The notes: generated by a model from the letters alone, not told the origin. Numbered from the stretch's first letter, positions 1,252 to 25,278 are shown. The stretch is 64,000 nucleotides of DNA from Paecilomyces variotii (GCA_004022145.1 RCNU01000011.1), one strand, 5' to 3'. Program-made: numbers and translations.

Positions 1252-3548
1252 ATGGGAGAATACACAACAACTCCCCCAGCTGGGGACGCAGCACATGAAA
1301 AGGGACAACAATTCCTCGAAAAGCAAACGAACCAAGCGCACGGCGAAGATGACAGCGCCGATACACTCGAAAACGACGCGAGAAGCAAAGAACCAGAAGG
1401 CATCACTGGTCTCCAGCTCTTTATCCTTCTGGGCTCCCTGACGCTGGTTATATTTCTTATGATGATGGATATGTCTATTGTTTCGACGGTAAATTTATGA
1501 ATATTCGGATGGAAGGGTGCGCATGATTTGCTGACTGAGGATTGCAATAATATAGGCGACTCCCCGTATCACTAGCGACTTCAAGTCCCTTCAAGATGTG
1601 GGTTGGTATGGGAGTGCGTATCAACTTGCGAGGTATGATGCTTCCTGATCATGAGAGAAAAGAAAAAAAGTGTAATTGGAATATACTGATATGTCGTGAT
1701 CAGTGCTTCTCTGCAACCATTGACGGGGAAGTTCTACACCTATTTCAAATCAAAGGTATGTATATTCCTTTTGAAACCCGATGTTGTAATTCTTAGACAA
1801 TGATGGCCTGACATCTTGTGCCTAGTGGACTTTTCTTGTATTCTTCGGGATCTTCGAGCTTGGCTCTTTGATATGCGGCGTTGCAACTTCATCAAAGATG
1901 CTCATTGTCGGACGGGCCGTGGCCGGTATGGGCTCTTCAGGTCTTCAGAACGGAGCTTTGACTATAATGGCTGCAGCTGTGCCAATGCAGAAACGACCAG
2001 GTGTGTATGACCGGCAACAATTGAAACTTACCCAGTAGGAGGACCCACTAACAATTTATATTGAAAGCTTTGTTGGGGATGATGATGGGTGGTAAGTAGA
2101 AATCTTGCTCAGATGTTTGCGGATCTCCATCAATGATGACTGACCATGTATTTCAGTTGGACAATTTGGTCTTATTATCGCACCGCTTGTTGGAGGGGCT
2201 TTTACAGAGTATACAACGTGGCGTTGGTGTGAGTGGTCCCTCTTTCTGCTTATGTACAGACATGGCAGCTGTTTTGTTCATATCATCGAGTTCGTTCGAT
2301 AACTTACACCCTATGCTCCTAGGCTTCTATATCAACTTACCCATAGGTGGATTAGTCGCAATCCTGCTCGCATTGATCCGTATTCCCAATAATTCCACCA
2401 AGTCCGAGAGTGGTTCGGTATTCCGGACTATCATCGAGAGATTCGATATTTTCGGATTCACACTCTTTGCACCAGCCGCTATCCAACTCCTGCTCGCGCT
2501 CCAGTACGGAGGGAACCGATACGCTTGGAATAGCGCTACTATAATTGGACTCTTCTGTGGCGCTGGAGGTACCTGCATCGTGTTCCTCTTGTGGGAATAC
2601 CGGAAAGGAGACAACGCTATGATCCCGTTCTCGATTGCCCGACAAAGGGTTGTGTGGTGCAGCTGCATATTTGGATTCTTCCTCATGGGCACTGTGATGT
2701 GTACTTCGTACTATCTTCCTATCTACTTCCAAGCCGTCAAGGGGGTGACTCCGACGTTGAGTGGAGTATATCTTCTACCAAGCATCTTGAGTCAGTTGAT
2801 GCTTGCTGTTATATCGGGTGCTTTAGGTAAGAGTTTGACTGAGTATGCGACTATCCACACAGACAGTATATGTTAGAGGATGGTCATAGTCAAGTTGCTG
2901 ACTGTATGCAAGTTTCGAAATTAGGATACTACCTCCCGTTCGCTCTCTTCAGTGGAGCCGTAACAGCAGTTGGAAATGGGTTGATTTCTACATTCTCACC
3001 AGGAACTTCCACAGGGAAGTGGATCGGATATCAGATAATTCTCGGAGTCGGTCGTGGTTGTGGATTTCAGATGGTGAGTCCAACCTATTCTCTTACTCTC
3101 TCTCTCTCTCTCTCTCTCTATGTATCGTGACTGCGTCAAGTACAACTTCCTAACTTTCTCCTCACTACAGAGCATCGTGGCAATCCAAAATATTCTCCCA
3201 ATGGCACAGATCTCCGTCGCCATGTCCGTGCTCATGTTCTGCCAGACGCTCGGAGGTGCTATTATCGTTACAATCGCAGACACGATCTTCAACAACAGTC
3301 TGAAGACTGAAATCCCTCGATATTCTCCGTCTGTCAATGCCGAAACGGTGATATCTGCCGGAGCGGCGGCCATCAGGGACGTGGTCTCGCCGAAGGATCT
3401 ACAGGGAGTGTTGTTGGCATACAGCAAAAGTGTCGACCATGTCTTCTATCTGGCTGCGGGACTTGCTGTTGGGTTTTTCTGCTTTGGATGGGGTCTGGGA
3501 TGGAAGGATATTAGGAAGAAGAAAGCAGTGGTGCCAGGTGAAGCATGA
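1252..3548 (+). CDS. MFS drug:H+ antiporter (DHA2, 14-TM) toxin efflux pump, GliA/AflT-like; multi-exon
   Basis: ATG 1252 (MGEYTTTPP...). Spliced exons give [48 protein letters not shown](C)[37 protein letters not shown], and end in [11 protein letters not shown] (TGA 3548). Confidence 0.92.
3096..3119. repeat. (CT)n microsatellite in an MFS intron
   Basis: Run of ctctctct... inside the intron starting GTGAGT at 3074. Confidence 0.85.
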
Positions 3549-6087
3549 GATGGTTCTATTAACAACGTCCGCGGCGGTCCGTTTTTGACTAACTAGGTAT
3601 ATGGAGCTCTGTTTAAGAAGCAACTTGAGAGTTCATTGTTTAATTCTTAATAACGTACCATACCACAGAATACTAGACTACATATGAGAATACAATAGAA
3701 GCATTGAAATAGAGCGTGAAAGCATACCATAAGAGTGAGAGACATCGAAAACTCAAAAGCTATTGTACCATAGATTCCGAACATACACGATGTTTAATTA
3801 CTTTAACCTTGGACGATATTTCACATGTTTGAAGGAGTTACTCTACAACAGCCTGCATTACGATCCAAAACAGGATAGATACAACATACAGAATTCCCCC
3901 AACAAAACACACTTGTGAAACTATACGAGGATCGAAAATACTACAAATGATCACATCGATGACGATAGGACGCCCGGATGTCTCTTCCCCGGTGGAGATA
4001 ACATCCGCATCCACATTGTGTTAACAACATACAGTACCATAAGTTAGAAGAATCCCCTAAGTACCTAAGGTAACATGGGGTCTCCATCGAATAGTAGCAT
4101 TCGACCATTATATCTCTCCAATTAAGGGAGGTTTATCTCAGCCTTTTTACATGTTCATTTTGAATATCTTGTTATGCCGTTTAGACTATGCAATGCTCCG
4201 GCTATGTTTTAAGCCTATATTAATACAGCGCTAAGGGGCCTATTAGATATCTGCTGCATTATATACCTAGATAACATTCTAATCTTCTTAATAGATAAGA
4301 AAGGATATAAATAGTATATCTCTAAAGTGCTAAAAAGACTCTATAAGTATAATTTATATATAAAGCTAAGTAAATATAAATTTTATAAAGAGGAAGTTTT
4401 TTTTCTTAGATTTATTATAAGATATAATAGGATTAAAATAAATCTCTCTAAGATTAAAATAATTTGTAATTAGCCTATATTAAAGATCTTTTATAATATT
4501 TAGATTTTTTTAAGATTTATAAGTTTTTTTAAAAGATTTATTTATAATTACTTCTCTATTATAATATTATTAATAGACTTATTTAAGGGCAGTAAAAATA
4601 ATAAAAAAATAAGCCTATTAAAATAAATATCTAAAATATAAAAAATATTTAAAGATTTAAAAACTATATTTATTAAACTACTAGTATTATAATATTATAA
4701 TCTAGAGAAGCTAATTATAATAGCTATAGATACCTTAGGATTTATTTTAGCTATTATTTTACTATAGCTTATAAGTAAGGTAATAGAATAATAATATCTA
4801 GTTATATATTTCTTAAAGAAATTTACTAAAATTAAATATTAATATAAAATATATAATTAGGAATTATTAGCAATAATTAAAGCTTTTAAATATTAAAGAT
4901 ACTATTTAGATAATAATAAATATCTTACTTAAATATAGATTAACTATATAAACTTACGCTATTTTTTTATAATAAAGACTTTAAATAATAAATAGGTAAG
5001 ATAGGTAAAGTTATTAGCAGGCTATAACTTTTATATTAAATATAAGCTAGGTTATTTAAATATAATTAATATACTATCTTAGAGATTAGACTATAAATTT
5101 TTAAAAAAAAATAAGAGATTAAACTACTATCTACTCTATAAAAAAACTAAAACTATATATTTTAAATAAAAAAAATAATATAAATAATTATAAATATTTA
5201 CTGCTAAGATTATTAATATTAAAAGTTACTAATAAGGAGATAATCTAAGATTTTTTAAAGCCTAATCTTCTAGAGTTACTTAAGCAGCTTTAATAAAAAG
5301 ATACCTTTATATTAAAGAAGATTAATAATTTAAAAACTAAGTAAGCTAAAAGCTTTAAATAGATTATAAATAATAAGAGTCTATTATAAAGATAAGATTA
5401 GATTTATATCTTAAATAAATATTTATTAAAATAAAAATTACTATAAATTTATTATAATAATCTATATATTAGCTATTAAAAAATTAAAACTATAAAAGAA
5501 TTACTTAAATAAAAGTTTTATTAGTTAAGTATATAAAATAATATATAAGAATATATAAAGACTTATAATATTTATAAAAGGAATAGAATTCTTAGATATA
5601 AGCTATATAAGCAGGTAAGCTTATTACCTATAATAGAAAGACCCTAATAGAATATATTAATAAACTTTATTATTAGCCTATTATTATTAACTTAATAAGA
5701 AGTTAAATATAATATAATCTTAGTAATTATAGACTAATACTCTAAGATAGCTTTATATATTTTAACTTAAGAAATAATTATAATAAAAGACCTGGCTAAC
5801 CTAATAATAAAAAGAGTATATTATTAATTTAATCTTTTAAAATTAATTATTTCTAATTAAAGATTAATATTTATTAATAAATACTAGACTAAGCTTTATT
5901 AATATATATAAATTACCTAATTAATAAATACTGCTTTTTATCTATAAATAAATAAGTAAATAGAGCGCTAAAATTAGACCTTAGAATATTACCTTAGAAT
6001 ATATATAAATTATTATTAAGATAATTAGGCATTATTATTAAGTATAGCAGAGTATACCTATAATAATATAAAGTATTTTATTATTAG

Positions 6088-6458
6088 TATAAAGAGCTAG
6101 GGTAAGGAAGCTCTTTATTAGAGGTAATTAGTTAGACTAATTAAACAGAATATAAGATAAGAAGTAAAAATACAGGCAAGTAGCTGTTTATATATAATAG
6201 AGTTAAGGGTTAGATTTAATAATAATTAGAATAAATTGCTAATCTATTTAACTTCTATTTCTTTAGGGGTTATTTATTTATTTATTTATTTTACTAGATT
6301 ATTTAAATAATCTAGTCTTAATAACTCTATTTATAACTAGCTAATTTAATTATTATATATAGATCTAATTATCTTATTATTCTTTATTATCTATTCTAGA
6401 TTATCTATCTTAGGTCTTAGTAAGTCTAGATTAAATATTATAGCCTTAATTTATAATA
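6088..6458 (-). repeat. Family A LTR (3' LTR of A-)
   Basis: TATAAAGAGCTAGGG...TTATAATA, a RIP-altered TGTAAAG...TTGTAACA; same 371-bp length as the other two copies. Confidence 0.9.
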
Positions 6459-6781
6459 ATATCTCCTTTTATTAAAAGGCTTATCTTAAGCTATATAAAG
6501 TTTATTATATAAGTCTAAATATTTAGGTATAGCTATAATAATAATAATAAGTTATTATTAAAATATACTTATTATATAAATTTATTTAATATTAGTTTTA
6601 TTTTAATATTTTTATTTAAGAGATTAAGAGTATTTCTATTTTTTATTAACTAACTCTTATTCTTCTACCTATATATTAAGTTATCTTTTTCTTATTTCTG
6701 TAGTTTATTTAATGCTATTTTTAATAGTTTAAATATAGAAATAGCTAATAATTATATAGGCATATTAAAAATAAGATTTTT

Positions 6782-8160
6782 AAGTTATTTTCTTTATAGG
6801 TCCTATATATATATTTAATATAAATTATAACTCTTTAAGTTTATATAATAATATTAATTAATATAATAATATTTCCTAAATATTTTAAGTATATTTTATT
6901 TATTCTAGGCTCTCTTAATAAGGCCTTTATAGCTAGCCTTAAGCTATTATAACTGCTAATTAAAGATTATTTATTTAATTATTAGCTTAATATAGATAAT
7001 AAATAGCTTAATAAACTATCTTTCTCTCTTATATCTCTAATTACTAATATAATATTAGAATTAATAACTTTTTCTTTATAAATTATTCTATTTATTGCTA
7101 TTAATAGTAATAATAAAATATCTTTATTAAAATTATTTATAGAGAACTCTTTAATAAAAGAGTATCTCCTACTTAAAATATATAGAGATTAGTTTATATT
7201 TAGTAATATAATTCCTCCTATATATAAGGAGGTATAAATTAATTTATTATATTCTTTTTAAAGATTAAAATATAATTATAATAATATTACTCTTACTATA
7301 CTTATAATAAAGAAAACTTTTACTTAGCTAGCTAAAAAATTATAAAGGAGATTAAAAATAAAGGAGGTTTTTAGTATAAAGACTTAGGGAACTTAAAATA
7401 TTATTATAACTTTTATTCTTAAAGTTAAAGCTATTATTAAAATACTTCCTTTTTAAATTAATTTAGCTCTTATTAAAATAATAATATTAATTATTATTAT
7501 TAATATTAATATAATAATAGATTATTTTATTACTTTTAAGGCAGACCCTATTATAAATCTTTTTAGCCTAAAGAATTTAATTAAAGACTTTTCTCTTATT
7601 TTATAGAAGATATATCTTTACTATTTAAAGGCCTTAATATAAGATTTAAAGTAATAATATATCTATTCTTATATTAATATAAAGTATCTTTATTATAAGA
7701 GCCTTTATAAGCTATATATTCTTATATTGCTAATATATAAAGCTAAATTAATTTATATTTAAAGTCTTAGCTAAAAGGCTTATTTTTTAAGTAATTTAAA
7801 GTCTTTTAATAAAGCTATAAATATATATATATTTTTTATAAAGATATATATACAAAAATCTATATTTAAGACTATTAAATACTAGCTTAATACTACTATT
7901 ATCTTATTAATCTTATTATATTTTAAATTAAAGTTATTATATCTCTTTTAAGAGTTATATTAAATAATCTATTTATTAAACTATAATATTTTATATATAA
8001 TAAATATATTTATCTAATTATAAAGACTGCCTCTATTCTTTAATAAGAAGAAAGAAGATATTATTAAGGGGTTTTATAGTAATAAAATAGCTAAATAGAA
8101 TAATTTTATAGGCTTATATTTAAATTATTAGCTAGGGCTAGCCTAATTAAATTAAATTAT
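6782..8160 (+). pseudogene. Putative fossil extra ORF (antisense to pol) in the 3' region of family A; second copy at ~22820-24200 on the - strand
   Basis: One + strand frame (positions = 2 mod 3) runs ~450 codons with no apparent frameshift and relatively few stops, all TAA/TAG and so explicable by RIP. Ends are approximate. Confidence 0.5.
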
Positions 8161-8613
8161 TTTTATTAAGATTCTTTTTTTCTATATCTTTTTTAAAACT
8201 CTTAAATCTTATAAAAAAATTAGAAAAAGAGTAATATATATAGTAATATATTTAATAATAGTTAAAAAACCTAATAGGAGAAAAAGTATTATTATCTATT
8301 TATTTTACTTTATTTTCTAATTTTTAACTCTTTTTTATCTTATTTTTATTTAAGCAGCTTATTTATATTAAAAGCCTTATTAAAGTTTTTATTATAATAT
8401 TTTTCTAGAGCTTTAATTATATATATAAAATCTTCTAATATCTATTATAAGTTTTTATATAAAGAATATTTTTTTTATTTTATTAGGAACTATTTTTTCT
8501 TATAAAAAGTTTATTTATTAAGAATTTTTTTTATCTTTTATTCTTATTCTCTATTAATAAAAATTAAATTTAACTATTTAAATTCTATCTCTTTTTATTA
8601 ATTATAGGGTTTT

Positions 8614-8762
8614 TATAACTAGGCGAAGCTATAGAAATATAGGAGGTAAGAAGGTTAATTGCTTTACTAGAGGGATACTGCTTACTAAGTGCTGCTAAGG
8701 TAGTTTAATAAGTAGTCTAATACTACTATAGCCGCAGCTATAGCAGAGCTATATCTATAATA
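8614..8762 (-). repeat. Family B LTR (3')
   Basis: Direct repeat of 16916-17064; adjacent to the polypurine tract. Confidence 0.9.
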
Positions 8763-11700
8763 AAATGCCCCCCCCCTTAAATAAAAGAAATAGTATCTGC
8801 GCTATAATATAATTAGATATAATTTATTAGCTATAGCTATTTTATTCTTTATCTAGGAAGACTTCCTTAGCGCTTAAAAGCTCTTTAATATTATTTTTTA
8901 TAATCCTAATAGGCTATATAGTACTAATTATAAATTTATTTTACTGAAAAACTAGCTATTTTTATTCTCTTTATTATTATTTTTATTAGTAATATTTATA
9001 TTAGTAGATATTAAGCTAGGCCTAGTAGCCTTTAAGGAAGCCTTAGTAAAGCTATTTAATAAGGTTAATAAGGCTATTATATATATAGTATTAAGGGAAG
9101 AAAATAATATTATTATATTTTACTAATTAATAATTCTTATCTATTAAATAATAAGGTTAGTTTTTTTATTATTATAATAAGCCTAGTAGAATTATTATAT
9201 ATAATAAGATTAATAGCCCTTTCTAGCAAAGCTATTATTTATTCTTTAAGAATCTTTTTTTTATTATATCTATTAAGACTTTTATTATAGCTATAAGCAG
9301 ATTCTTTAAGTCTAAAAGAATTAGGCGCTTAGGGCTTAATTCTTAAATAAGTATAATAGTTATAAAGATAAAGCATAACTCTAATTATAAAAATGCCTAA
9401 TATCTATTTATATAGATTATATTGCCTTAGTAATCTTATATTATTCTTATAATAGCTAGGTTACTTTACTTCTAAGGTTATAGGTTCTTAAACTGTTTTT
9501 TACTATTTATATTAGGCTACTCTTATTTATTATCTAGATATTTCTATATATATTATTTCTCTATCTATTCTTCTTTTTTATTAGGGCTTATATTATTTAT
9601 AGTATTATTAATATTATCTTCTAATATTAAGTTATTAGTATTATCTTTTAATATTAGATTAATAGTTAGGGGCTATAGCCTATAGTAGATTATTAGTTAG
9701 GCTAAGTATATATTAGGGCTATTGCTAGGGCTTAGATTTAAATTTTTATTTATAAGATTTTTACTAATATTAAGTTCTCCTACTATTATAATATAGTAAT
9801 ATTTTTCCTTAAAGATATATTAATAATATGCTTTAATCCGCTAATAGAATTATAGAATATTATTTAATTATATTAGTATTACTATTATAGCGTATATTAA
9901 GCATATTAATATTAAGTATTTTATTAAGTCTAGGAACTACTCTTTCTATCTAGCCTTATAATCTTATAATATTTCTCCTATTTAAATATTATAGTAAAGT
10001 CTTAGTCTCTTTTATAGGGCAGGTTATTTTACTAGCTATATATTTAGTTATATAATTATAATATAGCCTCCGTCCTTATTATTAAGTATAAAGATACTTA
10101 TTAATATATTAATATTTAATAATAATATAGGATAAATAGTAGTTTATACTAAATAAGGGAGATTAAGCTAATATTTTATTAAAATTAGCTATAGGTATAA
10201 TATAAGAATAAAATAGGTAAAGTATTATTAGTACTAATTAAGTAAGCTAATAATCTCTCTTTTAATAGTAAATATATAGAACTACTAGTAACTTTATTCT
10301 TATATTTTTTTATTAGCTTTAGCGCGTCTCTAAGATTATTAATATTATATTATATATTATATTCTAGCCTTTAGCCCTTTTATTAGACTAAGTATTCTAT
10401 AATAATATATTAGTAATATTAGTAGATATACTTATCTATAAGCTTCTTAATTTTATAGGTCTTAGTATTATCTTTTTCTATATATAGTGCTAGTAGTAGT
10501 TATAGCTATCTATTAAAAGGGTTATCCCCTAATAAGGCCGGCTTTAAGTATACTACTAAAAATATATTATATATTCTTTAGTATAATAATAGCTCTAGCT
10601 TATATACTAGTTTTCCTATATATTAAATTATTTTAAAAGGTCTAATATATTGTTATAAAAGCTTTCTTCTTAATACCTCTATTACTAGTATTAAGTAGCC
10701 TTTATAAAGATATAAATAGACCTAATTACTGGGTATAAAGGTAATATAGAGATATTACTAATTATAATATTACTTAGCTAATATAGCTATTATCTTTATA
10801 GCTTCTCTTATATTAATTTTATATATAAAGTTTTATTCTAGTTTTATATTATATATAAGATCTGTAAATATAGGTAATTTAATACTATATACTAGCTAAT
10901 ATAGTATATGCCTTATAGATATGCTTTTATTATTATTAAAGGCCTCTTAAAGCTATAATAGCGCTAAGGGCTAATCTATTAAAGTATTTAATATACTAAG
11001 AAAATACCTAAAAGCTATTTCTGCTTATTAGTTTATATACTTTAATTACTTATTTATTTACGGGTAAAACGCTATTAAAAATAATAGCTAAATATCTAGG
11101 TATTTAAAAAGTTTCTTCTATAAGTTAGATAGAAATTTAAGGTTTTTATTAGAGATAATTTTCTATAATAAATCCTAGTTCTTAATATATAGATAATTTA
11201 GCAGAGCTACTGCTTAATTAGCTATAGTCTAAGTAGCTTTTTTTAAAATAAATATTATTCTTTTAGTAAACTTATATATTATTAATATAGCTTAATTAAG
11301 GCTATCTCTTATCTTAGGCAGGCCTATAATAAAATTAATAGTTAGTATATTAAATAAGATTAGTAGCATTATAATAGGCTATATAGACTTAAAGGGCTAA
11401 TATTACTATATTTAATTTACTATATATTTAGGGCAGTAGGTAATATATTCTTATACTAGCTTAAATATCTTATAAATAGCTAAACTATTTAGTCTATTTA
11501 GTATCCTATTAATTCTAGGATAATTAATTTAATTATAGATAAGCTATAGTATCTTTAAGACTATTAATTATAGAATATATAGATATTAATATCTATTATA
11601 CTTATCAATTAAGTATAAAAGACTATCTTCTATCTTATATAGTAATATTGCCTTTAACTTATTCTATAGATTATCTAATATTTAACTTTATTTAGAGTTT

Positions 11701-14700
11701 ATTTAATAGCCCTTTACTAATTTCTCCTTAAACCTGGGGCTTATCTTAACTAGGGAGATATAATAAATATTTATCTTATTATTAATATTAGTAATAAAGA
11801 TATCTATATCTCTAATATCTTCTAATAAGGGGGTATATAGCTCTACTATAGCTAATAGTAAATATAATAATATATCTAGCACTATATTAATTTTACTAGG
11901 CTTATAGATAAGGTTTAAATTAAATTATTAAATATATTATATTATAAGGACTAAGTATAAGTTAGTCTACTTTATTAAACTAGATTTTAATATAATCTAC
12001 TTAGCTATTACTAGAATAATACTATAATCTATAAATATTATAATAGTTAACTTTAATATTTTAATAAGGTAGTATATCTTCCTAAGTATCTATATTAAAT
12101 ATATAACCTTTAGTTCTATTAGCTAATATTTTATTTCTGCAAAGTTTAGCTATTTTAATAAGAATAGAATTAGCTATATTTTTAACCTATTTAATATTGC
12201 CTTAGCTAATAGGCTAGCTATTAAGAGATAATATTTATCTACTAATATCTTATTATATAAGTAGTATATTATTATACTAAGACTATATTTTAATATATTT
12301 ACCCCGGAGCCGCCTATTATATTGAGATTAATATAGAATAGTTTATTTAGTAAAAAATAGGCTAAAAAGAATAAGTCCTAGAAATATTATTTAATTTTTT
12401 AGAATAATTATAGCTCTTATTTAATTAAAAGGTCTATTTAAGTATTAGTTATAAACTTTTAGTATAGTTTACTCTTAATAAGATTAGAGTATAGTAATAA
12501 TATCTTATGGTCTTATAAAGGACCTATAATAATTATATACCTTAAGATATATTAGTAGAATTATCCTGTAAGGGTAAGGAAATATTTAAAATTCTTTAAA
12601 ATAGCAAGGAAAGATAAGTTTATTATAGCCTTTATTTTTTCCTTTAGATTAGCTATATTAAAGGCATTAATCTAATAATTTAATAGCATTATTAAGGGAA
12701 ACCTAATAAAGGACTTTTTAAGATTTAGGGTAATATTAAGCTTCTATATTATAGAGAATAATATATATAGATATTATTTATAATTATTTAATATCTTTAA
12801 TGCTATAACTAGATTATCTATATAGATATAAATAAACTCCTAGAATTTCCGCAAGTAGTAATCTATAATTTATTAGATATAGGCAGATATATTATAAAAT
12901 CCTATTATAGCTATATTAAAAACCTCTTAGCCTTAATAGCTAATTACTATTAGTTATAATTAATAGGGTAGGAATACTCTCTATTAATAAAAAAAGGAGA
13001 TTATATTATAAATAGAGATAAATAGCTTTCTTACTATTATTACTAAGATTTTATCCTATAATAAAATAGGATAAATATTAGATTTTATCTCTTAGTTTAG
13101 TATGCAAATATCTACTATAATATATCCTTTTTATATTTATTAGCTATCCTTTTTTATTATTTTTTAGATAATAAAGACTAGGTATTTAGTAGGTATATAG
13201 CTATTAGCCTATTCTATATAACCTAAGTTATAAAGTTTATTAAATATATTATCTATAATCTTTTAGTCTATTAGTCTTAATAGGTAAACCTTAGATTAAT
13301 ATAAGAGCTGGGCTTTTTAATCTTTCTTTAATAATATTTATATCTATTAATTTTTTAGTATATTAGTAAAGCTATAGTTATCCTATATATTATATAATTT
13401 AATAATGTATTATAGCTAATTAGTAATATTCTTATCTCTATAAATAGTAATACCTTTTGCTATAATTTACTCTAGGCTTAGCTTATATACTATTTCTAGG
13501 GTCAGTCTGTTATATTCTTTTTATAGAGCCTTTATTAAGAGTATTATTATAGGGTTAATTATAAGAGTATTTATTCTATTTAATTTATTAAGTATATTTA
13601 ATTATATTTTTTATAGGATTACCTATAACTGCTTTAAGAAGTTAAATGCTTAAATAAATATTATTTTTATATTAACTATATAAGTAAATAGTGTAATATA
13701 ATTATAGTATAGGTTAAAGAGATAGTCTCTATTATTAACTAAATTGCCTTTTACTTTAACTAGCAGCTATATACTAGATTTTAATAGTATTATTACCCTT
13801 TAAGCTAAATAGATAAATTAGGGCATATAATACCCTAGCTTTATTATAATTTTTATTAGTATTATTACTCTTTAATAGATATTAATAATTATTATACTAA
13901 TACTTAAATTAAGTATAAATTTATATAGTATGAGAATATTATTGCTTATAAAGATATTTACTCTTAGCCTATTAACTAAATATACTTTTATTTTTAGTCT
14001 AGCCTTAATCTCTTAGCTATTAAAGATAGCAGGCAGGTTAATTAAAAGTTAGATAAACTAGATAAATAATATAGCTATACTACTAATACCCCTAACTATA
14101 ATTTCTAATATATCCTATATTAGTAGGTATAGGGCTTATTATTATAAGAACTATTTATTAATAATTATTATAGAGTAATTATTATTTAAATAGATAGTAG
14201 TATATTTTTAAGAGTTTACTATATATGCTAAAGCTTTAGTATAATATTATCCTTTAAAGGAGTATCTAGTGCCTATTTATAGCTGCGTTGGGGCTATAAA
14301 GTATATTATTTAAGGTATTTTATTTCTAGTTATTATAAATATCTGTAGTATTACTATCTCTTTATTATACTTAAATTATATGCTCTAAAAATATTAATAT
14401 AGTTTATTATTTAATTTAAACTTATATAAGTATATGTAATATTCTTAAGCAAGGGCTTTTAGCTAAATATAGTATATAAATTAATTATAGCTATTATCTC
14501 CTATATAGTCTATTATATCCTTTATGTATTTAATACCCTTATCTAGCTTATTATTAAATCTAGTGTCTTTGTATTTTATATAATATATGTCTTAGTAAAA
14601 CCTATCTATAAAAGAACTAGTTTAATTACTATTAATATCTATTAAATATTATAATATAAATAGCAGATCTCTTACTTCTAACTTATTATTAATATATATA

Positions 14701-16915
14701 TTATATACTTATTAGGGAATAGTATTACCTTAATTTAATTAGTCTTAATTTAGTATAAATAATTATTAAGCCCTATTATAGTTTTATAAGAATATTTATT
14801 AAGTAGTAATATTTTAATTTAGCTAGTTATAGTTTTATATAAATAATAATCTAAAAGATATAAAGAATCTACCTTCTTTACTTCCTCTATTAATAAATTA
14901 TCTTATCTAATCTTAAGGAATATTAGCTATAGGCCTTATGTTTAAGGATTATTGCTATAGCTATAGCCCTAGATTAAATTATTCTAGATTATTATAGCGA
15001 TATGCTTAGTATAATAATATCTATATATAGCCTTAATTGCTGTATTTATAATTGCTATATTAATTATATTATTCTAACTACTAATTATTCTTTAAATTAG
15101 CCTAGTCCTATTATATTATATAGGCTTTATTTACCGATTTTATAAACTATACTAATAATATATTCTTATTAGAATAGATAAGGTCTTTCTATATATATAG
15201 GGAAAACTTTATCTATACTAAATAAAGCTGTATATAAATTATATTAGGTCTTATTATCTTATGCAGCTAGATAATTATTTATATAAAATTTTATAATATA
15301 ATTCTATTTTATATATTAGCTATAGAGTATAATATTTTTTTTAATTTATATATTATAATACTTATATTAACTTTAAATTGCTTTAATAATAGTAGAATTT
15401 AAGCTTCCTTAATAAGATATATTTATAAACTATCTTATTTAAATTTAAAAAGCTTTATTATATACTATTATAATATTTATCTCTTAAAGGATATATAGAG
15501 CTATAGCTAAACTAACTTATTACTCTTAATTAAGATAAGGTCCTAAATATATTTAGTAAATAAATAAATATCTTTATAAAATATTTAGCTATTAATAATT
15601 ATTATCAGCCTTATTCTTATATATTTATAGTCCTTTAAATCTAGTTAAAAAAACCTAAGTTTTTCTTACTTTTAAAAGGCTAAGCTATTTAGGTATAATA
15701 ATAGTATTATTATAATATTACTAGCAGTATCTTAATTATAATTATAATTATTGCTTAAAGTAAAGTAGTTTCTATTAGATTATATATTATTCTATTATTT
15801 ACTAAGTTTATATAAAATATCTTAATTTTATTTTACTAGCTTAGTTATAGTCTTAGTTATTATTTTATTTAATATAGCTATTATTTTTATTATCTATATA
15901 AATAAAGTATTAATACTTATTAAATTAGAATTAATTTTTATTAATAGCCTTACCTTAATATTATTACTTATATCTTTACCTTTAACTAATAATAGTATAG
16001 TATTATATATAGGTCTTTTACCTTCTATATTGTTTATTTCTCTGTCCTATTATTAGTTAACTATAGTATTATCTTTATCTTATTTAGCTCCTGTGCTAAG
16101 CAGTAGTTATTTTATATTAAAGATTAAAGAATAGAAATTAGTTCCTAAATATAATAGCTTATTAAACTATATTTATAAAAAGTTTAAGGAGATATTAGAG
16201 ATATCTGTAAAATATTTAAGTATATAATATTCTTAATCTAAGAATACTAGAGTATTTCTTTAAGGGTTAGAGAAGGCTCTTATTTATATTATATATAATA
16301 ATAATATTTTAAAATAGCTGTAGCCTAATAGATTAGTTAGTTCTTATATTATTTCCTCTTTTAATAATACTCTTTACTCTTACTACTAGGATAAAAAGGT
16401 AAAGTTATTAATTAATACTTTTATTGCCCTGTAAAAGCTATTTATAGCTTAATTTAAAATATTTTAGTTAATTACCTAGTCTGCAGGAAATAAAAAATTT
16501 CCTATCTATAAAGTAATATTATCCCTAAATATAACTAAGTTAACTATAAGATAAGCTAATATTAAACTTCCTTTTAGTATTAAATAAAATAAAATAATAA
16601 AATTAATTAAGAATAAGATAATTTAGGGGAGTTAATTTCTATAATTTAACTAGCTTACCTAGAAAGCTATAAGCTAAAAAACAATTAATATAATTTAAAA
16701 AGGGATTATAAGTAAGTATTAGGAGGGAGAGTTTAGATTATTAGAAGATATAGGCATATAATATTATAAGAATACTAATATTATCTTTATTAATATACAG
16801 CAGATTCTTCTATAAGATAATAGGATTAATTAACTAAAGTCTAATAATCCTAAGGTCCTAAAGCTTAAGATAGAGATAGTAGAGATACTCTAATTAATTA
16901 AGATATACTATTATT

Positions 16916-17064
16916 TATAACTAGGTAAAGCTATAAAAATATAGAAAATAAGAAAGTTAATTACTCTACTAGAGGGATACTGCTTATTAAGTGCTGCTAA
17001 GGCGGTTTAATAGGCGGTTTAATACTGCTATAGCCGCAGCTATAGCAGAGCTATATCTGTAACA
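16916..17064 (-). repeat. Family B LTR (5')
   Basis: Direct repeat of 8614-8762; ends TGTAACA followed by TSD GTTTT. Confidence 0.9.
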
Positions 17065-20000
17065 GTTTTAATAGAGATATATAGAATATTAGATATATTT
17101 TATTTAAGCTCTTTAGTAGTTATAATTAATATACTTATTTTCTAATTATCTTTATTATTTTATAGGGTCTAGAAAATTAATAATTTAACTTTTTATTTAA
17201 TTAATTAGTTTATAAATTCTTTATTAATAGAAGAACTTAATCCCCTATTTTATATAATTTAAGTATATGTTTCTTATTATAGTACTTTACTTATATCTTA
17301 ATAGTATATTATAAATATTTCTCTAACTTTACCCTAATATTTAATAATTTTTTAAGTTATTCTTTAATAGTAGAAATATTCGACCTTATTCTTATATTAT
17401 ATTTATCTTAACTATTAGGATTAAAGCTATAAAGGGCTTTAAATAGTAAGTATTTAATAGTAAAATATTTTATATTATTATAAGTATACTTTGCTGCACT
17501 TAATAATAATGCCTAATTATCTTAATAATAATTTATATATACTCTTAAGTAATACTCTAAGGTTTAATTCTAATACTTTATTTGTCTATCTATCTATAAA
17601 TAAAAAGCAGTGCTTATTAATCAGGTAATTTATATATACTAATAAAGCTTAGTCTAATATTTACTAGTAAACACTAATCTTTAATTAGAAATAATTAATT
17701 TTAGGGGATTAAAATAGTAATATATCCTTTCTATTATTAGGTTAGCTAGGTCTTTTACTATAATTATTTCTTAGGTTAAGATATATAGAGCTATCTTAAA
17801 GTATTAGTCTATAACTACTAGAATTATATTATATTTAACTCCCTATTAAATTAATAATAGCAGGCTAATAATAAAATTTATTAATATATTCTACTAGGGT
17901 CTTTTTACTATAAATAATAAGCTTAACTATTTATATAGCTTATATCTAAGAACTTTATTCCTTTTATAGATATTATAAGTCTTTATATATTCTTATATAT
18001 TATTCTATATACCCGGCTAATAGAACTTTTATTTAAGTAATTTTTTTATAGTTCTAATTCTTTAATAATTAGTATATAGATTATTATAATAAATTTATAA
18101 TAATTCTTATTTTAATAAATATTTATTTAAGATATAAATTTAATCCTATCTCTATAGCAAATCTTTATTATTTATAATTTATTTAAAGCTTCTAGAGTAA
18201 TTAATCTCCTAATTACTAATCTTTTTTAATATAAAGATATCTCTCTACTAAAGCTGTCTAAATAATTTTAAAAGATTAAGCTTTAGAGAATCTTAGATTA
18301 TTTCCCTATTAATAATCTTTAATACTAATAGTTTTAGCAGTAAGTATTTATAACTATTTATACTATCTTCTTTATTTAAAATATATAATTTTAGTTTTTT
18401 TTATAGGGTAAATAATAATCTAATTTTCTATTTCTCTTTTAAGAGTTTATAATTTAATCTCTAAGATAATATATTAACTATATTTAAATAACCCAGCTTA
18501 TATTTAATATAAAAGTTATAATCTATTAATAACTTTGCCTATTTTATCTATTTATTATTTAAAGTCTTTATTATAAAAAAATAGCATAAGTTTATATAAT
18601 TAGTTTATACCTAAATAGGGTATTTACTGCTATTTAAATAGTATCTTTAATATTTAAAAGCTTTAATTATTGCTAATAATTCTTAGTTATATATTTTATA
18701 TTAATATTTAATTTTAATAAATTTCTTTAAGAAGTATGCAACTAGGTATTATTACTTTATTACCTTACTTATAAGCTATAATAAAATAGTAGCTAAAGTA
18801 AATCCTAAGATATTTATAGCTATTATAATTAGCTTTTCTAGATTATAATACTATAATACTAGCAGTTTAATAAATATAGTTTTTAAATCTTTAAATATTT
18901 TTTATACTTTAAGTATTTATTCTAATAGGCCTATCTTTTTATTATTTTTATTATTTTTAAATAAGTCTATTAATAGTGTTATAATAAAGAAATAATTATA
19001 AATAAATCTCTTAAAAAAACTTATAAATCTTAAAAAAATCTAAATATTATAAAAGGTCTTTAATATAGGCTAATTATAAATTATTTTAATTTTAGAGAAA
19101 TTTATCTTAATCCTATTATATCCTATAATAAATTTAAAAAAAAACTTTCTCTTTATAAAATTTATATTTACTTAGCTTTATATATAAATTATATTTATAA
19201 AATCTTTTTAGCATTTTAGAGATATACTATTTATATTCTTTCTTATCTATTAAGAAAATTAAGATATTATTTAAATATATAATATAGCAGATATTTAATA
19301 GGCCCCTTAGCACTATATTAATATAGGCTTAAAATATAGCTAAAGTATTATATAATCTAAATAGTATAATAAGATATTTAAAATAGCTATATTTAATTCT
19401 AAATATTATCTTTTATTTATCTCCCCTTTATATATAGATTTTATAATAGGCTTCTTAGAGATTAAGTTTTAAAAAAATTCTTGTATTTATTAATTAATCT
19501 AGTATCTTATCTATCTATAGTAATAAATAGTAATTCTTAATTATTTAGGCATTTAGTCCTTAATAATTAATATATAAGCATAATTTATTATCTTTCTTAG
19601 GGATAAAAATAATTAGTAATTTAGCTAAGCTAGTTAAAGCCTAGATTTAACCTTATTATTATATATCTTTTAAATATTTTTATAATACATTTAGTTCTCT
19701 AGCAGAATATAAGTATAGAGGCCCTTATAGCAGTAACTTATTATTAATTAAATTAATTATATAGGTCTTAATATTTTCTAATAAGAGTAATATTTTAGCT
19801 CTCTTTTTTAAAAAGATATTTTAAAATTATATATAATATAAAGGAAGTTAAATTTCTTTTATATCTATTTTAATATATTTCCCTTATATATAATAGATTA
19901 GTTAATTCTATACTATCTCTATAAATATTTATAGGGTTTAAATCTTAACCTAAGATAAAGCCTTCTATTAATATCTCTAAGTTAAATATCTCTAATCTAT

Positions 20001-21607
20001 AATAAGATTATTATAATATAACTATAATAATCTTAAGATTATATTTTAATTCTTCCTAATTATATTAAGTTCCTATATAGAAATAATCTAGAAGTTAATC
20101 TTATAATATTCTATTTTCTTCTCTAAGTCTTTTATCTTAATAATAATAGGGAAATAGCTATAAATTAGTATTATTTAATCTCCTATCTATAAGGTATAAC
20201 CTACTAGCTTTTATAAAAACCCCTTATATCTATAATATAATAAAAAGTTATAGTTAATAAAGTTAGTATATACTTAAGAATTAAGAAGTATATTTATTTT
20301 TATAATATAATCCTTAATTAATATACTTACTAAAGTTATAAACTCTAGCTCTACGCCTTTAAGGCACTAAAGTATATTTAGCCTAATACCTTTATCTTTA
20401 GGGGGTTTAGAGTTCTTCCCTATCTTATTAAAATATTATTTATTAATATATTTATTTTTCTTATAATTAAAATATTGCCCTTCTTTTATTAACTATTCTT
20501 ATTTCTCTAAAAATTTAAACCTCCTTATTTTATATTCTAAATAAGTCTTTATAGAGATTAATTAAAATAATTTATCCTTTTATTTATCCTGTATATATAG
20601 GTAAAATTAGTCTTTTTCCCTTATATAAGGTTAAGATTATTCCTTCTTCTTAAAGTCTTTTAATTAAGATTTAATAGAGTTTTTAAGACTTTATTTAATA
20701 ATTATAGCCTTAAAAGCTAATTAGTTTAAATTAGTTAGAATATATATGTACTTAAATAACTAATTCTATATATCTTCTTATAGTATAAAGAAGAAAGTTT
20801 AGCTTTAGATATTATTCTCTAGGGCTAATTTAGCTTTATAAAGCTTAAATTTATTATAAAATTCCTAAGTAATTTATCTTAGCTATTATTTTAGCCCCTA
20901 GAATTATATAATAGCTATTTAGGGTTAATATTATAGATTCTTAAGATAATTTAATAGCTATTATTAAAATCTCTACTATAAAGTTATAATTAAAGTAAGA
21001 AGTTTATAACTTTAAGCTATTCTATAATTATTTAAAAGCAATATAATAGTATAGTTTATCTTACTAGCTTCAGTTTAAAATATTAATATATTATAGGTAA
21101 AATATTAATCTATATAGCAGTACTAATAATAATAAATATTTAAATCTTTAACTTAATATTAATAAGGTTTAGGCAGTTTAATAATAAACTTAGATTTAAG
21201 AGCTATATTTATTTATTTTATTAGTTCTATAACTATAGCTATACTTATCTTTTCTAATAATCTCTAAGTTATATCTTATAGAGCTCTTATTACTATACTA
21301 TTAACTTAATGCTAAGAATTTAATAAGATAATAGGTTTAGTATTAATAGTATTTAATTCTTATTAAATCTTAAAGTCTATAATACTTCTTAAATTTATTA
21401 GATTTTTTAAGTCTATAATAATTATTAGTTTAGGCTAATTAAGACTAATATTACTTACTAATCTTAATTGCTTAAGATTAATAATATTTGCTAATTTAAG
21501 TTAAGCGCTAGGCTCTAAGCTATATTTAGATTCTTTATACTAATCTCTAATACTATTTCCTAATATCTCTTCTCTTCTTAATATACTATTAATTAAGCAA
21601 TTTAAAC

Positions 21608-21978
21608 TATAAAGAGCTAGGGTAAGGAAGCTTTTTATTAAAGATAACTAGTTAGACTAGTTAAATAGAATATAAGATAAGAGATAGAAATATAGGCAAA
21701 TAGCTATTTATATATAATAGAGTTAAGAGTTAAGTTTAGTAATAATTAGAATAAATTATTAATTTATCTAACTTCTATTTTTTTAGAGGTTATTTATTTA
21801 TTTATCTATTCTATTAGATTATCTAAATAATTTAGTTTTAATAGCTCTATTTATAACTAGCTAATCTAACTATTATATATAAATCTAGTTATCTTATTAT
21901 CTTTTATTATTTATCTTAGATTATTTATTCTAGGTCTTAGTAGGTCTAGATTAAGTATTATAGCTCTAGTTTGTAATA
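21608..21978 (-). repeat. Family A LTR (5' LTR of A-)
   Basis: Direct repeat of 6088-6458; ends TTGTAATA followed by ATTAA. Confidence 0.9.
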
Positions 21979-24524
21979 ATTAAATACTTACTATTTAAGG
22001 CCTTTTATAGCTTTAATTCTAATAGCTAGGATAAATATAATATAAGAATAAGGTTAAATATTCCCGCTATTAAGGAATAACTTAAAGAATTATTAAATAT
22101 TAAGGTAAAGTTAGAAAAATACTTATAATATATTATTAAGGTATAAGCGAAGTATTATAATAAGAAATATATATTTAAATTATATAAAATAAGGGATTAA
22201 ATTTTTTTATTAATAAAGAATCTATAAACTAATTAATTAAATAAAAAGTTAGACTATTAATTTTCTAGACCTTATAAAGTAATAGAGATAATTAAAAAGT
22301 AAGTATATTAATTATAACTACTAAAAAGCTTAAGTAGAATATATCTAATATTTTATATATCTCTATTAAAACTTTATAATTAATAAAAAGAGATAAAACT
22401 TAAATAGCTAAATTTAGTTCTTATTAATAAAGAATAGAAATAAAAAATAAAAGAAATTTTTAATAAATAAACTTTTTATAAAAAGAAATAATTTTTAATA
22501 AAATAAAAAAAATATCTTTTATATAAAAACTTATAGCAGATATTAAAAAATCTTATATATATAATTAAAGCTTTAGAGGAGTATTATAATAAGAATCTTA
22601 ATAAGGCTCTTAATATAGATAAGCTGCCTAAATAAAGGTAATATAAAGGAAAGCTAAAAATTAGAAAGTAAAATAAAATAAATAGGTAATAATACTTTTT
22701 CTTTTATTAGGTTTTTTAACTATTATTAAATATATTACTATATATATATTACTTTTTCTTTAATTTTTTTATAGGGTTTAAGAGTTTTAAAAAAAATATA
22801 AAAAAAAGAAATCTTAATAAGAATAATTTAATTTAATTAGGCTAGCCTTAGCTAATAATCTAAATATAAGCTTATAAAATTATTTTATTTAGCTATTTTA
22901 TTATTATAAAATCCCTTAATAATATCTTCCTTCTCCTTATTAAAGAATAGAGGCAGTTTTTATAATTAGATAAATATATTTACTATATATAAGATATTAT
23001 AATTTAATAAATAGATTATTTAATATAACTCTTAAAAAAGATATAATAACTCTAATTTAAAATATAATAAAGTTAGTAAAATAATAGTAGTATTAAGCTA
23101 GTATTTAATAGTCTTAAATATAGATTTTTATATATATACTTCTATAAAAAAAATATATATATTTATAGCCTTATTAAAAGACTCTAAATTATTTAAGAGA
23201 TAAGCCTTTTAGCTAAGACTTTAAATATAAATTAATTTAGCCTTATATACTAGCAGTATAAAAATTTATAGCTTATAAAGGCTCTTATAATAGAAATACT
23301 TTATATTAATATAAGAATAGATATATTATTATTTTAGATTTTATATTAAAGCTTTTAAATAATAAAGATATATCTCTTATAAGATAGGAGAAAAATCTTT
23401 AATTAAACTCTCTAGGCTAAAAGAATCTATAATAAAGTCTGCCTTAAAGATAATAGAATAATTTATTATTATATTAATATTAGTAATAATAGTTAATATT
23501 ATTATTTTAGTAAAAATTAAATTAATTTAAGGAGGAAGTATTTTAATAATAACCTTAATTCTAGGAATAAGAATTATAATAATATCTTAAATTCTCTAAG
23601 TCTCTATATTAGGAACCTTTTTTATTTTTAATTTTTTTTATAATTTTTTAATTAATTAAGCAGGAATTTTCTTTGCTATAGGTATAATAAGAATAATATT
23701 ATTATAATTATATTTTAACCTTTAAAGAGAATATAATAAACTAGCCTATATCTTTTTATATATAAGAAGAATTATATTATTAAATATAAACTAATCCCTA
23801 TATATTTTAGGTAAGAGATACTTCTTTATTAAGAGGTCCTTTATAGATAATTTTAGTAGAGATACTCTATTACTATTATTAATAGTAATAAATAAAATAA
23901 TTTATAAAAAAAGAGTTATTAGTTTTAATATTATATTAGTAGTTAAAGATATAGAAGAGGGAGATAACTTATTAAGCTATTTATTATTTATATTAAGCTA
24001 GTAACTAAATAAATAATCTTTAGTTAGTAATTATAATAGCTTAAGGCTAGCTATAGAGGCCTTATTAAGAGAGCTTAAAATAAATAAAATATACTTAAAG
24101 CGCTTAAGAGGTATTATTATATTAATTAGCACTATTATATAAATTTAAAGGGTTATAATTTATATTAAGTATATATATAGGATTTATAAAAAAAATAACT
24201 TAAAAATCTTATTTTTAATATATCTATATAACTATTAGCTATTTCTATATTTAAATTATTAAAAGCAGTACTAAATAAGCTGCAGAAATAAGAAAAGGAT
24301 AGCTTAATATATAGATAGAAAAATAGGAATTAGTTAATAAAAAATAGAAATACTCCTAATCTTTTAGATAAAAATATTAAAATAAAGCTAATATTAAATA
24401 AATTTATATAATAAGTATGCCTTAATAGCAATTTATTACTATTATTATAGCTATACCTAAATATTTAGACCTATATAATAAACTTTATATAGCTTAGGAT
24501 AAGCTTTTTAATAGAGGGAGATAT

Positions 24525-24895
24525 TATTATAAATTAGAGTTATAATACTTAATCTAGATCTGCTAAGACCTAGAATAAATAACTTAGAATAGATAATAAA
24601 AGATAATAAGATAATTAGATTTATATATAATAGTTAGATTAGCTAGTTATAAATAGAGCTATTAAGACTAAATTATCTAAATAACCTAATAGAATAGATA
24701 GATAAATAAATAACCTTTAAAGAAATAAAAGTTAGATAGATTAGTAATTTATTTTAATTACTACTAAATTTAACTTTTAATTTTATTATATATAGACAGC
24801 TACTTGCCTATATCTCTATCTCTTATCTTATATTCTGTTTAACTAGTCTGACTAGTCACCTCCGATAAAGAGCTTTCTCACCCCAGCTCTTTACA
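24525..24895 (+). repeat. Family A LTR (3' LTR of A+)
   Basis: Inverted relative to the other two A LTRs; 371 bp; the last ~70 bp are almost unmutated (...CCCCAGCTCTTTACA). Confidence 0.9.
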
Positions 24896-25278
24896 GTTAA
24901 TCGATCGGTATCTGAGTGTTGTTCTTGTTGTTCTTGTTGGCTAAGATTCAATATGGACAAACAAGGTCAGCGTCGCAATGACATCATGAGAAGTCCGACA
25001 TCCCGCAGCAACCAACGAGAATTGGGCGATTTCTCCTCCTGACATATTGGGAAAACCGCGGATGGGCTTCCGAGGAATTTATTTTCTTATAAATAAAGAG
25101 CGAGAGGAATCAAATTTGACTTGTTACTTACTGTACTTGTCAATCTTGGTCGTGTTCAATTCGTTAGGGCTAAGCTGTTGCTGTTGCTGTTCCATTCATA
25201 GCCTTCATTATACAAAAAGAACTTCGACCTCAAAGCCACACGGATCGCCAGGACAAACAAACATTGAAGTTCCAAACC

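Follow-up and report, generated by a model that had tools for sequence, protein, structure and literature searches.

What lies between pol and the 3' LTR of the RIP-degraded chromodomain retrotransposon found in this part of the Paecilomyces variotii genome? The window (the whole stretch of 64,000 nucleotides that was analysed) contains two copies of this element, family A, and in one of them the region 6782-8160 had been predicted, from the sequence and from stop counts made by hand, to hold the fossil of an extra gene of ~450 codons running antisense to pol. A working antisense gene of ~450 codons, transcribed from the side of the 3' LTR, is probably the best explanation of what the sequence contains. 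Here we describe the setting of this putative gene, the evidence for its reading frame and strand, and the other ways in which the same data could be read.

The interval belongs to an AT-rich block of 21 kb (~3.95-24.9 kb, 15-22% G+C) with flanks of normal composition. Self-BLAST, Pfam searches on translations with stops written as X, and phmmer resolved the block into three nested RIP-degraded Ty3/gypsy elements, A1, A2 and B; an intact relative, P0001, was the phmmer reference used to place pol. Copy A2 (+ strand) is truncated in the RT at ~3950, extends to 6086 and resumes at 21979-24898. Inserted in it, with a target duplication of 4-5 bp, is A1 (21980-6088, - strand), a complete copy that is itself split by element B (8612-17062, - strand), a separate gypsy element located right after the integrase SH3 domain of A1. 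Without B, A1 has a length of ~7.4 kb. Its two LTRs of 373 bp are found on the - strand at 21608-21980 (5', by self-BLAST) and 6088-6461 (3', by self-comparison), and the polypurine tract (6462-6470, - strand) abuts the 3' LTR. In A2 the polypurine tract (24513-24521) and the 3' LTR together occupy 24513-24898 on the + strand.

The pol of A1 is encoded on the - strand, with the RT near 19.6 kb and the end of the integrase SH3 domain at 17064, and picks up again at 8617, beyond the 8.4-kb insert B. This C-terminal end (8335-8617, - strand) aligns to residues 828-1005 of P0001 and includes the chromodomain at ~8387-8540. Alignment to P0001 also places the pol end of A2 (+ strand) at ~22648 and its chromodomain at ~22441-22594. 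The Pfam domain order in the RIPed copies was RVT_1, RT_RNaseH, Integrase_H2C2 and SH3_Tf2-1. The Pfam Chromo model gave no match to the RIPed A copies; residues 155-205 of A2 align to the Chromo domain of P0001 (Pfam, 948-998) and both tryptophan positions are now stops. Family-A pol ends ~35 residues past the chromodomain. With this pol order and C-terminal chromodomain, LTRs, polypurine tract and short target duplication, family A is a chromovirus. The gap of ~1.9 kb that had been noticed between the chromodomain and the polypurine tract of both A copies is real, the pol-to-polypurine tract interval measuring ~1.87 kb in A1 and A2. Over the last 2.5 kb the two copies show 309 differences, with one 2-nt indel, and since 305 of the 309 are transitions this divergence is a RIP signature. 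The 12% difference between them (6088-8617 and 22364-24898) falls at other C/G sites, CpA/TpG being saturated in both.

Direct repeats of 149 bp bound element B (8612-8760 and 16914-17062), and its target duplication is GTTTT-like. Its RT is located at ~13380-12500 and its SH3 domain at ~10520, and the ~3.7 kb upstream of the RT, strongly three-periodic at 13500-14100, exceeds the usual need of gag plus protease. No stop-poor frame comparable to that of family A was found in the 3' tail of B. The 5' edge of A2 (3950-4160) has far fewer mutations than the rest of the block and its RT motifs are still readable. This edge adjoins an intact-looking transporter gene (ORFs at 2100-3550), and there RIP stops within ~200 nt of the repeat boundary.

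One frame on the strand opposite to pol had been described as relatively open. A recount of this + frame confirmed its 13 stops in the 220 codons of 7442-8101. For 7441-7680 the stops numbered 5, 8 and 13 in the three frames, the first two as counted before and the third one fewer than the 14 originally given. It is also true that all the stops are TAA or TAG, but trivially so: RIP eliminated TpG and, with it, TGA from all six frames. Along 6782-8160 the six frames have 30, 35, 59, 61, 63 and 80 stops per 459 codons each, and this asymmetry stood up to dinucleotide-preserving shuffles, 0 out of 1000 having 30 or fewer stops in the lowest frame (shuffle mean 47.4). The same test was non-significant for the true RIPed pol (18000-18749, P = 0.76) and for the LTR (P = 0.16). 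In addition, the sequence has a three-base periodicity of the coding type, with maxima at 6900-7800 and 23250-24000 that exceed any level reached in pol. It is long-range (lags to 120 nt), persists after short-repeat masking and involves no tandem array.

The original prediction had left the strand tentative, pointing out that the in-register frame on the pol strand is stop-poor as well. It is, with 13 stops against 14 in the antisense frame per 250 codons over 6818-7567, and this raises the possibility that the extra ORF was an env-like or ORF3 gene downstream of pol in the sense orientation, the antisense frame being its stop-poor shadow. True RIPed pol does cast a shadow of this kind: in A1 (17064-21608) the real frame has 146 stops in 1594 codons and one antisense frame in the same relation has 148 in 1589 (0.092 and 0.093 per codon). 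Stop-poor sense/antisense pairs are therefore expected whichever strand coded. The interval also shares the purine skew of pol. In RIPed DNA stop counts alone are a weak and strand-ambiguous signal, without power to assign the strand.

Other composition-based approaches were tried. A codon-usage classifier trained on the RIPed pol of A and B leaned to the antisense frame; it was dropped because in 12 control windows it gave the top rank to the true frame only five times. Codon-position G/C content as an argument for strand is symmetrical under RIP, hence not decisive. A deRIP consensus, which had been proposed as a check, could be built from the two copies; it took no stop out of the true pol frame and no more than four out of any other. 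It is uninformative here because CpA/TpG is saturated in both copies, which differ elsewhere.

Much more can be said from protein searches. A profile made of the aligned antisense-frame translations of A1 and A2 was compared with 1.84 billion representative proteins (E cut-off 0.001) and exactly two passed, P0014 (E 1.6e-35) and P0015 (E 1.2e-23). P0014 is a database-predicted protein of 207 aa, with an ordinary residue make-up and without AT skew, and P0015 has 82 aa and is partly RIP-like. When compared back with the window, P0014 matches only the antisense frame, at 7418-8092 in A1 (E 1e-34) and at 23568-22891 in A2 (E 1.3e-39). Both peptides that had been quoted from the raw translation as resembling a helical protein fall within this match. 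The register in A1 consists of 7406-7816 plus 7886-8095, that is 137 + 70 codons, the exact length of P0014. At every one of these 207 A1 positions, a codon for the P0014 residue yields the present codon through C>T or G>A substitutions and no others. In A2, 205 of the 207 are RIP-compatible with P0014 in the MAFFT register, and a single ancestral codon suits A1 and A2 jointly at 206 of 207 positions. As a control, P0014 shifted by 1-50 residues was RIP-compatible at 17-25% of positions. The 11 stops of A1 face Q (six), R (four) and W (one) in P0014, just as proposed when they were attributed to RIP of CAA, CAG, TGG and CGA codons, and the C-terminus of P0014 coincides with TAG/TAA in both copies.

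The validated part of the antisense ORF in A1 (+ strand) is thus composed of a first stretch at 7406-7816 (residues 1-137 of P0014, with seven stops today) and a second one at 7886-8098 (residues 138-207), which includes the stop at 8096-8098. Its end is at 8098 and not at 8160 as first predicted. A spacer of ~235 nt (8099-8334) separates this stop from the end of pol, the two reading frames being convergent, tail-to-tail. In A2 the equivalent validated region, on the - strand, is 22885-23577, counting the stop and a 69-nt segment that in A1 separates the two stretches (7817-7885, + strand, 23 codons). This segment is missing from P0014, and P0015 reads through it to the TAG. The reading frame is kept with or without it because its length is a multiple of three. 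It could represent a short in-frame intron, or else sequence that the gene model or the source copy lacks. Today its ends read ATAAAT...TAG, compatible with a RIPed GT...AG intron, and its length is typical for fungi; the "intron" may also have been a device of the gene predictor to skip a stop. Judging from an unmutated or lightly mutated relative, it is close to certain that the antisense frame was open over 207 codons before RIP, and if the 69-nt segment was read through the open frame would be of 230 codons, ending at 8096-8098. The antisense ORF is seen in both window copies, plus the sources of P0014 and P0015. These four sequences differ by RIP-type changes only, leaving no divergence with which to show purifying selection.

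Within the first stretch, Tandem Repeats Finder reported (AAT)14 at 7477-7519, a tract that aligns to a T/V/I/L/A/D-rich portion of P0014 and corresponds to RIP-collapsed coding sequence. A tract that looks like a microsatellite in RIPed DNA is not necessarily an ancestral repeat.

The match to P0014 also bears on the strand. For the pre-RIP candidate codons of 7406-8095, two pol-strand frames have 10 and 4 stops whichever synonymous codons are chosen, and the third has 26 stops in 207 codons today, the background level, against 11 in 207 for the gene frame. For this reason, and with P0014 matching antisense frames only, the tentative call of the strand opposite to pol as the coding one is upheld over 7406-8095. 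The sense-strand ORF fares badly on the same ground, since the very frame that is stop-poor over 6818-7567 is the one with four unavoidable stops. It also meets with 10-15 stops in the pol-strand frames of 6519-6815, against one in the antisense frame. Word-based protein searches with both antisense and sense frames found no match; the empty sense-frame search is a weak point against a sense ORF, and none of these nulls is evidence of absence, because the method also missed P0014. Altogether we consider a sense-strand ORF highly improbable.

How far the antisense ORF extended upstream of 7406 has to be judged by other means. Of the ~450 codons originally predicted, 207 are validated by P0014, and ~290 upstream codons are read from stop density and codon phasing only. 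The nearest putative continuation, 6839-7405 (+ strand), is in the same frame as the P0014 stretch and has 11 stops in 189 codons. This is 0.058 stops per codon, the background of the RIPed block being 0.122 (range 0.090-0.151). In codon-position composition it is nearly equal to the validated stretch (chi-square p = 3.8e-4), and one pol-strand frame is equally stop-poor here (10 against 11 of 189). Nearer the LTR, a block at 6519-6815 has a single stop in 99 codons in a different + frame, the other five frames having 10-19 (binomial P = 3.9e-5 at mean background), and in this block the + strand alone is stop-poor. Its first codon is ATA, immediately preceded by a TAA and located 59 nt in from the LTR edge. 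The join between the 6519-6815 and 6839-7405 frames would be either an intron or an indel. The candidate upstream part in A2 (23578-24464, - strand) shows open runs and stop counts as in A1. These features suggest an ORF of roughly 430-500 codons from ~6519, in line with the predicted length, and a start probably nearer 6519 than the 6782 first proposed. Positions 1-196 of the profile (6818-7405) matched no protein among the 1.84 billion representatives, and in both copies there is a TAA four codons upstream of the Met of P0014.

P0001 was the nearest intact pol that we found (E 7e-44 to the RIPed A1), with the domain order RT, RNase H, integrase, SH3 and chromodomain. Its family provided 581 confirmed stretches in metagenome assemblies, of which 80 were kept, corresponding to 79 distinct loci. 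This family was very abundant in one metagenome assembly set, and in 75 of the 79 kept loci pol was 71-97% identical to P0001. The loci (L001-L079, for example L001 at 7404-13918) have a median G+C of 0.33, and many copies are mildly RIP-like; the RT motif of P0001 itself carries P>S, G>D and A>V substitutions. Ten loci were examined for their ends. In eight of them the LTRs measured 373-409 bp (one of the others has a doubtful LTR pair and one has none) and in eight the gap between pol and the 3' LTR was 459-464 nt, most elements being ~6.48 kb long. The P0001 family is like family A in having LTRs of the 373-bp size and differs from it beyond pol, with ~463 nt against ~1.87 kb. In tblastn searches (E<=10) P0014-like sequence was absent from all 79 loci, and P0015 gave only one 12-residue chance match (E 9). 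As the nearest relatives have the ~463-nt spacer and no P0014-like sequence, the ORF-bearing segment is an addition that is particular to the family-A lineage.

An addition of this kind might have been a passenger with no role for the element, captured by an ancestor of family A, in antisense orientation, from a host gene or some other mobile element. Apart from the absence of the segment in the nearest relatives, the make-up of P0014 is like that of an ordinary ascomycete protein, and its Atlas neighbours are unnamed clusters of ascomycete hypothetical proteins (0.88-0.90), which serve as leads only. However, at protein level the interval showed no similarity to other parts of the window, Pfam found no family in the pol-to-polypurine tract interval in the six frames of A1 or in three frames of A2, and beyond P0014 and P0015 no further protein among the 1.84 billion representatives was matched by the profile, which is weakened by RIP. 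Moreover, the ORF would occupy the interval almost from the LTR edge to the end of pol, a better fit to an integrated gene than to a random fragment. A passenger origin is in our opinion quite unlikely.

The protein itself is an orphan in the collections that were searched. P0014 had no family in Pfam, no solved relative among PDB sequences and no relative in JGI metagenome contigs, and Rfam found nothing over 6000-8700. The Atlas recognition value of P0014 is 2175, below the 2300 reached by 91 in 100 proteins of known families. The AlphaFold model from the single sequence was poor (mean pLDDT 40); its first half, rich in proline and alanine, is disordered, and helices occur within residues 109-200. 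Sampled words were present at 60-83% in three sequencing runs of one organism label and at 6-12% in many runs, including one metatranscriptome, values that are no evidence of copies, habitat or expression.

This orphan character, with the poor model and the recognition value under the usual level, would also be expected if the ORF were fortuitous, the 3' region being non-coding and an antisense frame having stayed open for ~200 codons by chance in GC-normal DNA and then been annotated by a gene predictor, with no protein ever made. The gene model needs a 69-nt gap, there is a TAA just upstream of the Met of P0014, and the known versions are RIP variants of one sequence only, all of which fit such an accident. 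Against it, the stop-poor frames cover ~1.58 kb and not 0.6 kb, and the codon-phase periodicity is significant and exceeds that of true pol. The 0.053 stops per codon of the validated part, well under the background of 0.122, is close to what Gln, Trp and CGA-Arg codons usually amount to together. Besides, relative to the nearest relatives, this segment is a specific addition. We regard a chance ORF as unlikely.

The antisense gene thus remains our preferred reading, and its history could be pictured as follows. Before RIP, family A would have been a chromodomain Ty3/gypsy element of 7.4 kb with a convergent ORF opposite to gag-pol, the protein-coding ORF taking up ~1.6 kb of the 1.87-kb interval between pol and the polypurine tract. 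Transcription would have started at an antisense promoter within the 3' LTR or adjacent to it, a location proposed because a start 59 nt from the LTR edge leaves little other room. The product may have been an accessory protein peculiar to the element, rich in proline and alanine in its N-terminal part and helical in its C-terminal part, acting on the cycle of the element itself or on its silencing, as suspected for the antisense ORFs of plant Ty3/gypsy elements and for brtn of Boty. Saturating RIP has turned Q, R and W codons into stops, and both window copies are dead; expression of these RIPed copies is unlikely.

A more specific version, in which the gene is an independently acquired regulator expressed from an antisense promoter of the 3' LTR that protects or tunes the element (for instance against RNA silencing, or by convergent transcription over the 3' end of pol), is quite unlikely. 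Deltaretroviruses have antisense genes with a layout comparable to such a regulator. If this were the case, the presence of the gene in family A and not in the nearest relatives would mean that a fungal chromovirus had recently gained a de novo protein.

Some of these results concern RIPed DNA in general. When it is scanned for genes, stop-poor frames come in sense/antisense pairs, and a two-copy deRIP consensus carries no information once CpA is saturated, but a profile of translations with stops as X can still retrieve the unmutated protein. An intact version of the protein in public data, together with close relatives lacking the segment, makes family A a further example for study, and intact copies in a culturable fungus, if they exist, would permit knock-out and expression tests.

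The original prediction assumed that canonical fungal chromoviruses encode only gag and pol and that antisense 3' ORFs are described in some plant Ty3 lineages. The second part agrees with the literature and the first is incomplete, as Boty carries the antisense gene brtn (PMC7264820, PMC4227169). The Boty-like elements of Botrytis cinerea and Sclerotinia sclerotiorum are described as having a chromodomain within gag-pol (PMC4227169), and brtn, which runs opposite to gag-pol, occupies part of the stretch from pol to the 3' LTR (Zhao et al. 2011, Virology 417:248, as cited in PMC7264820, PMC8365987 and PMC5987419). Compared by layout alone, the family-A ORF is like brtn in having a chromodomain-bearing fungal Ty3/gypsy host, an antisense orientation and a location 3' of pol. 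Family A departs from the description of Boty in its 373-bp LTRs, its length of 7.4 kb, the heavy RIP and the fact that both copies are dead. The two matches of our profile are unnamed. If BRTN is among the 1.84 billion proteins, this RIP-weakened profile failed to reach it. An "add. ORF" of unknown function is also marked for some fungal chromodomain Gypsy elements by Novikova et al. 2010 (PMC2864245), a likeness with family A (an extra ORF in a fungal chromovirus) that is drawn from the figure legend alone.

In plants, antisense ORFs between pol and the 3' LTR (aORF-3R) are reported for Grande1, RIRE2, Retand and PvRetro13 (PMC7264820; PMC11963269). Family A has the corresponding position, with the putative ORF (6519 or 7406 to 8098) between the pol end at ~8335 and the polypurine tract at 6462-6470 and the same layout in A2, and the corresponding strand, P0014 matching only the + strand of A1, where pol is on -, and only the - strand of A2, where pol is on +. 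Besides position and orientation, the plant ORFs are described as domain-less orphans and lineage-specific (PMC7264820), as this one seems to be. On the other hand their hosts, likened to family A by layout, are mostly non-chromovirus elements (Tat/Retand-type) with much longer internal regions and belong to another kingdom, and the ORFs offer no sequence similarity for a comparison. By its predicted arrangement the antisense ORF of family A is a further case of the known antisense-extra-gene layout. To the antisense extra ORFs of plants and of Botrytis, family A would add a second, apparently unrelated, case in another lineage of fungal chromoviruses.
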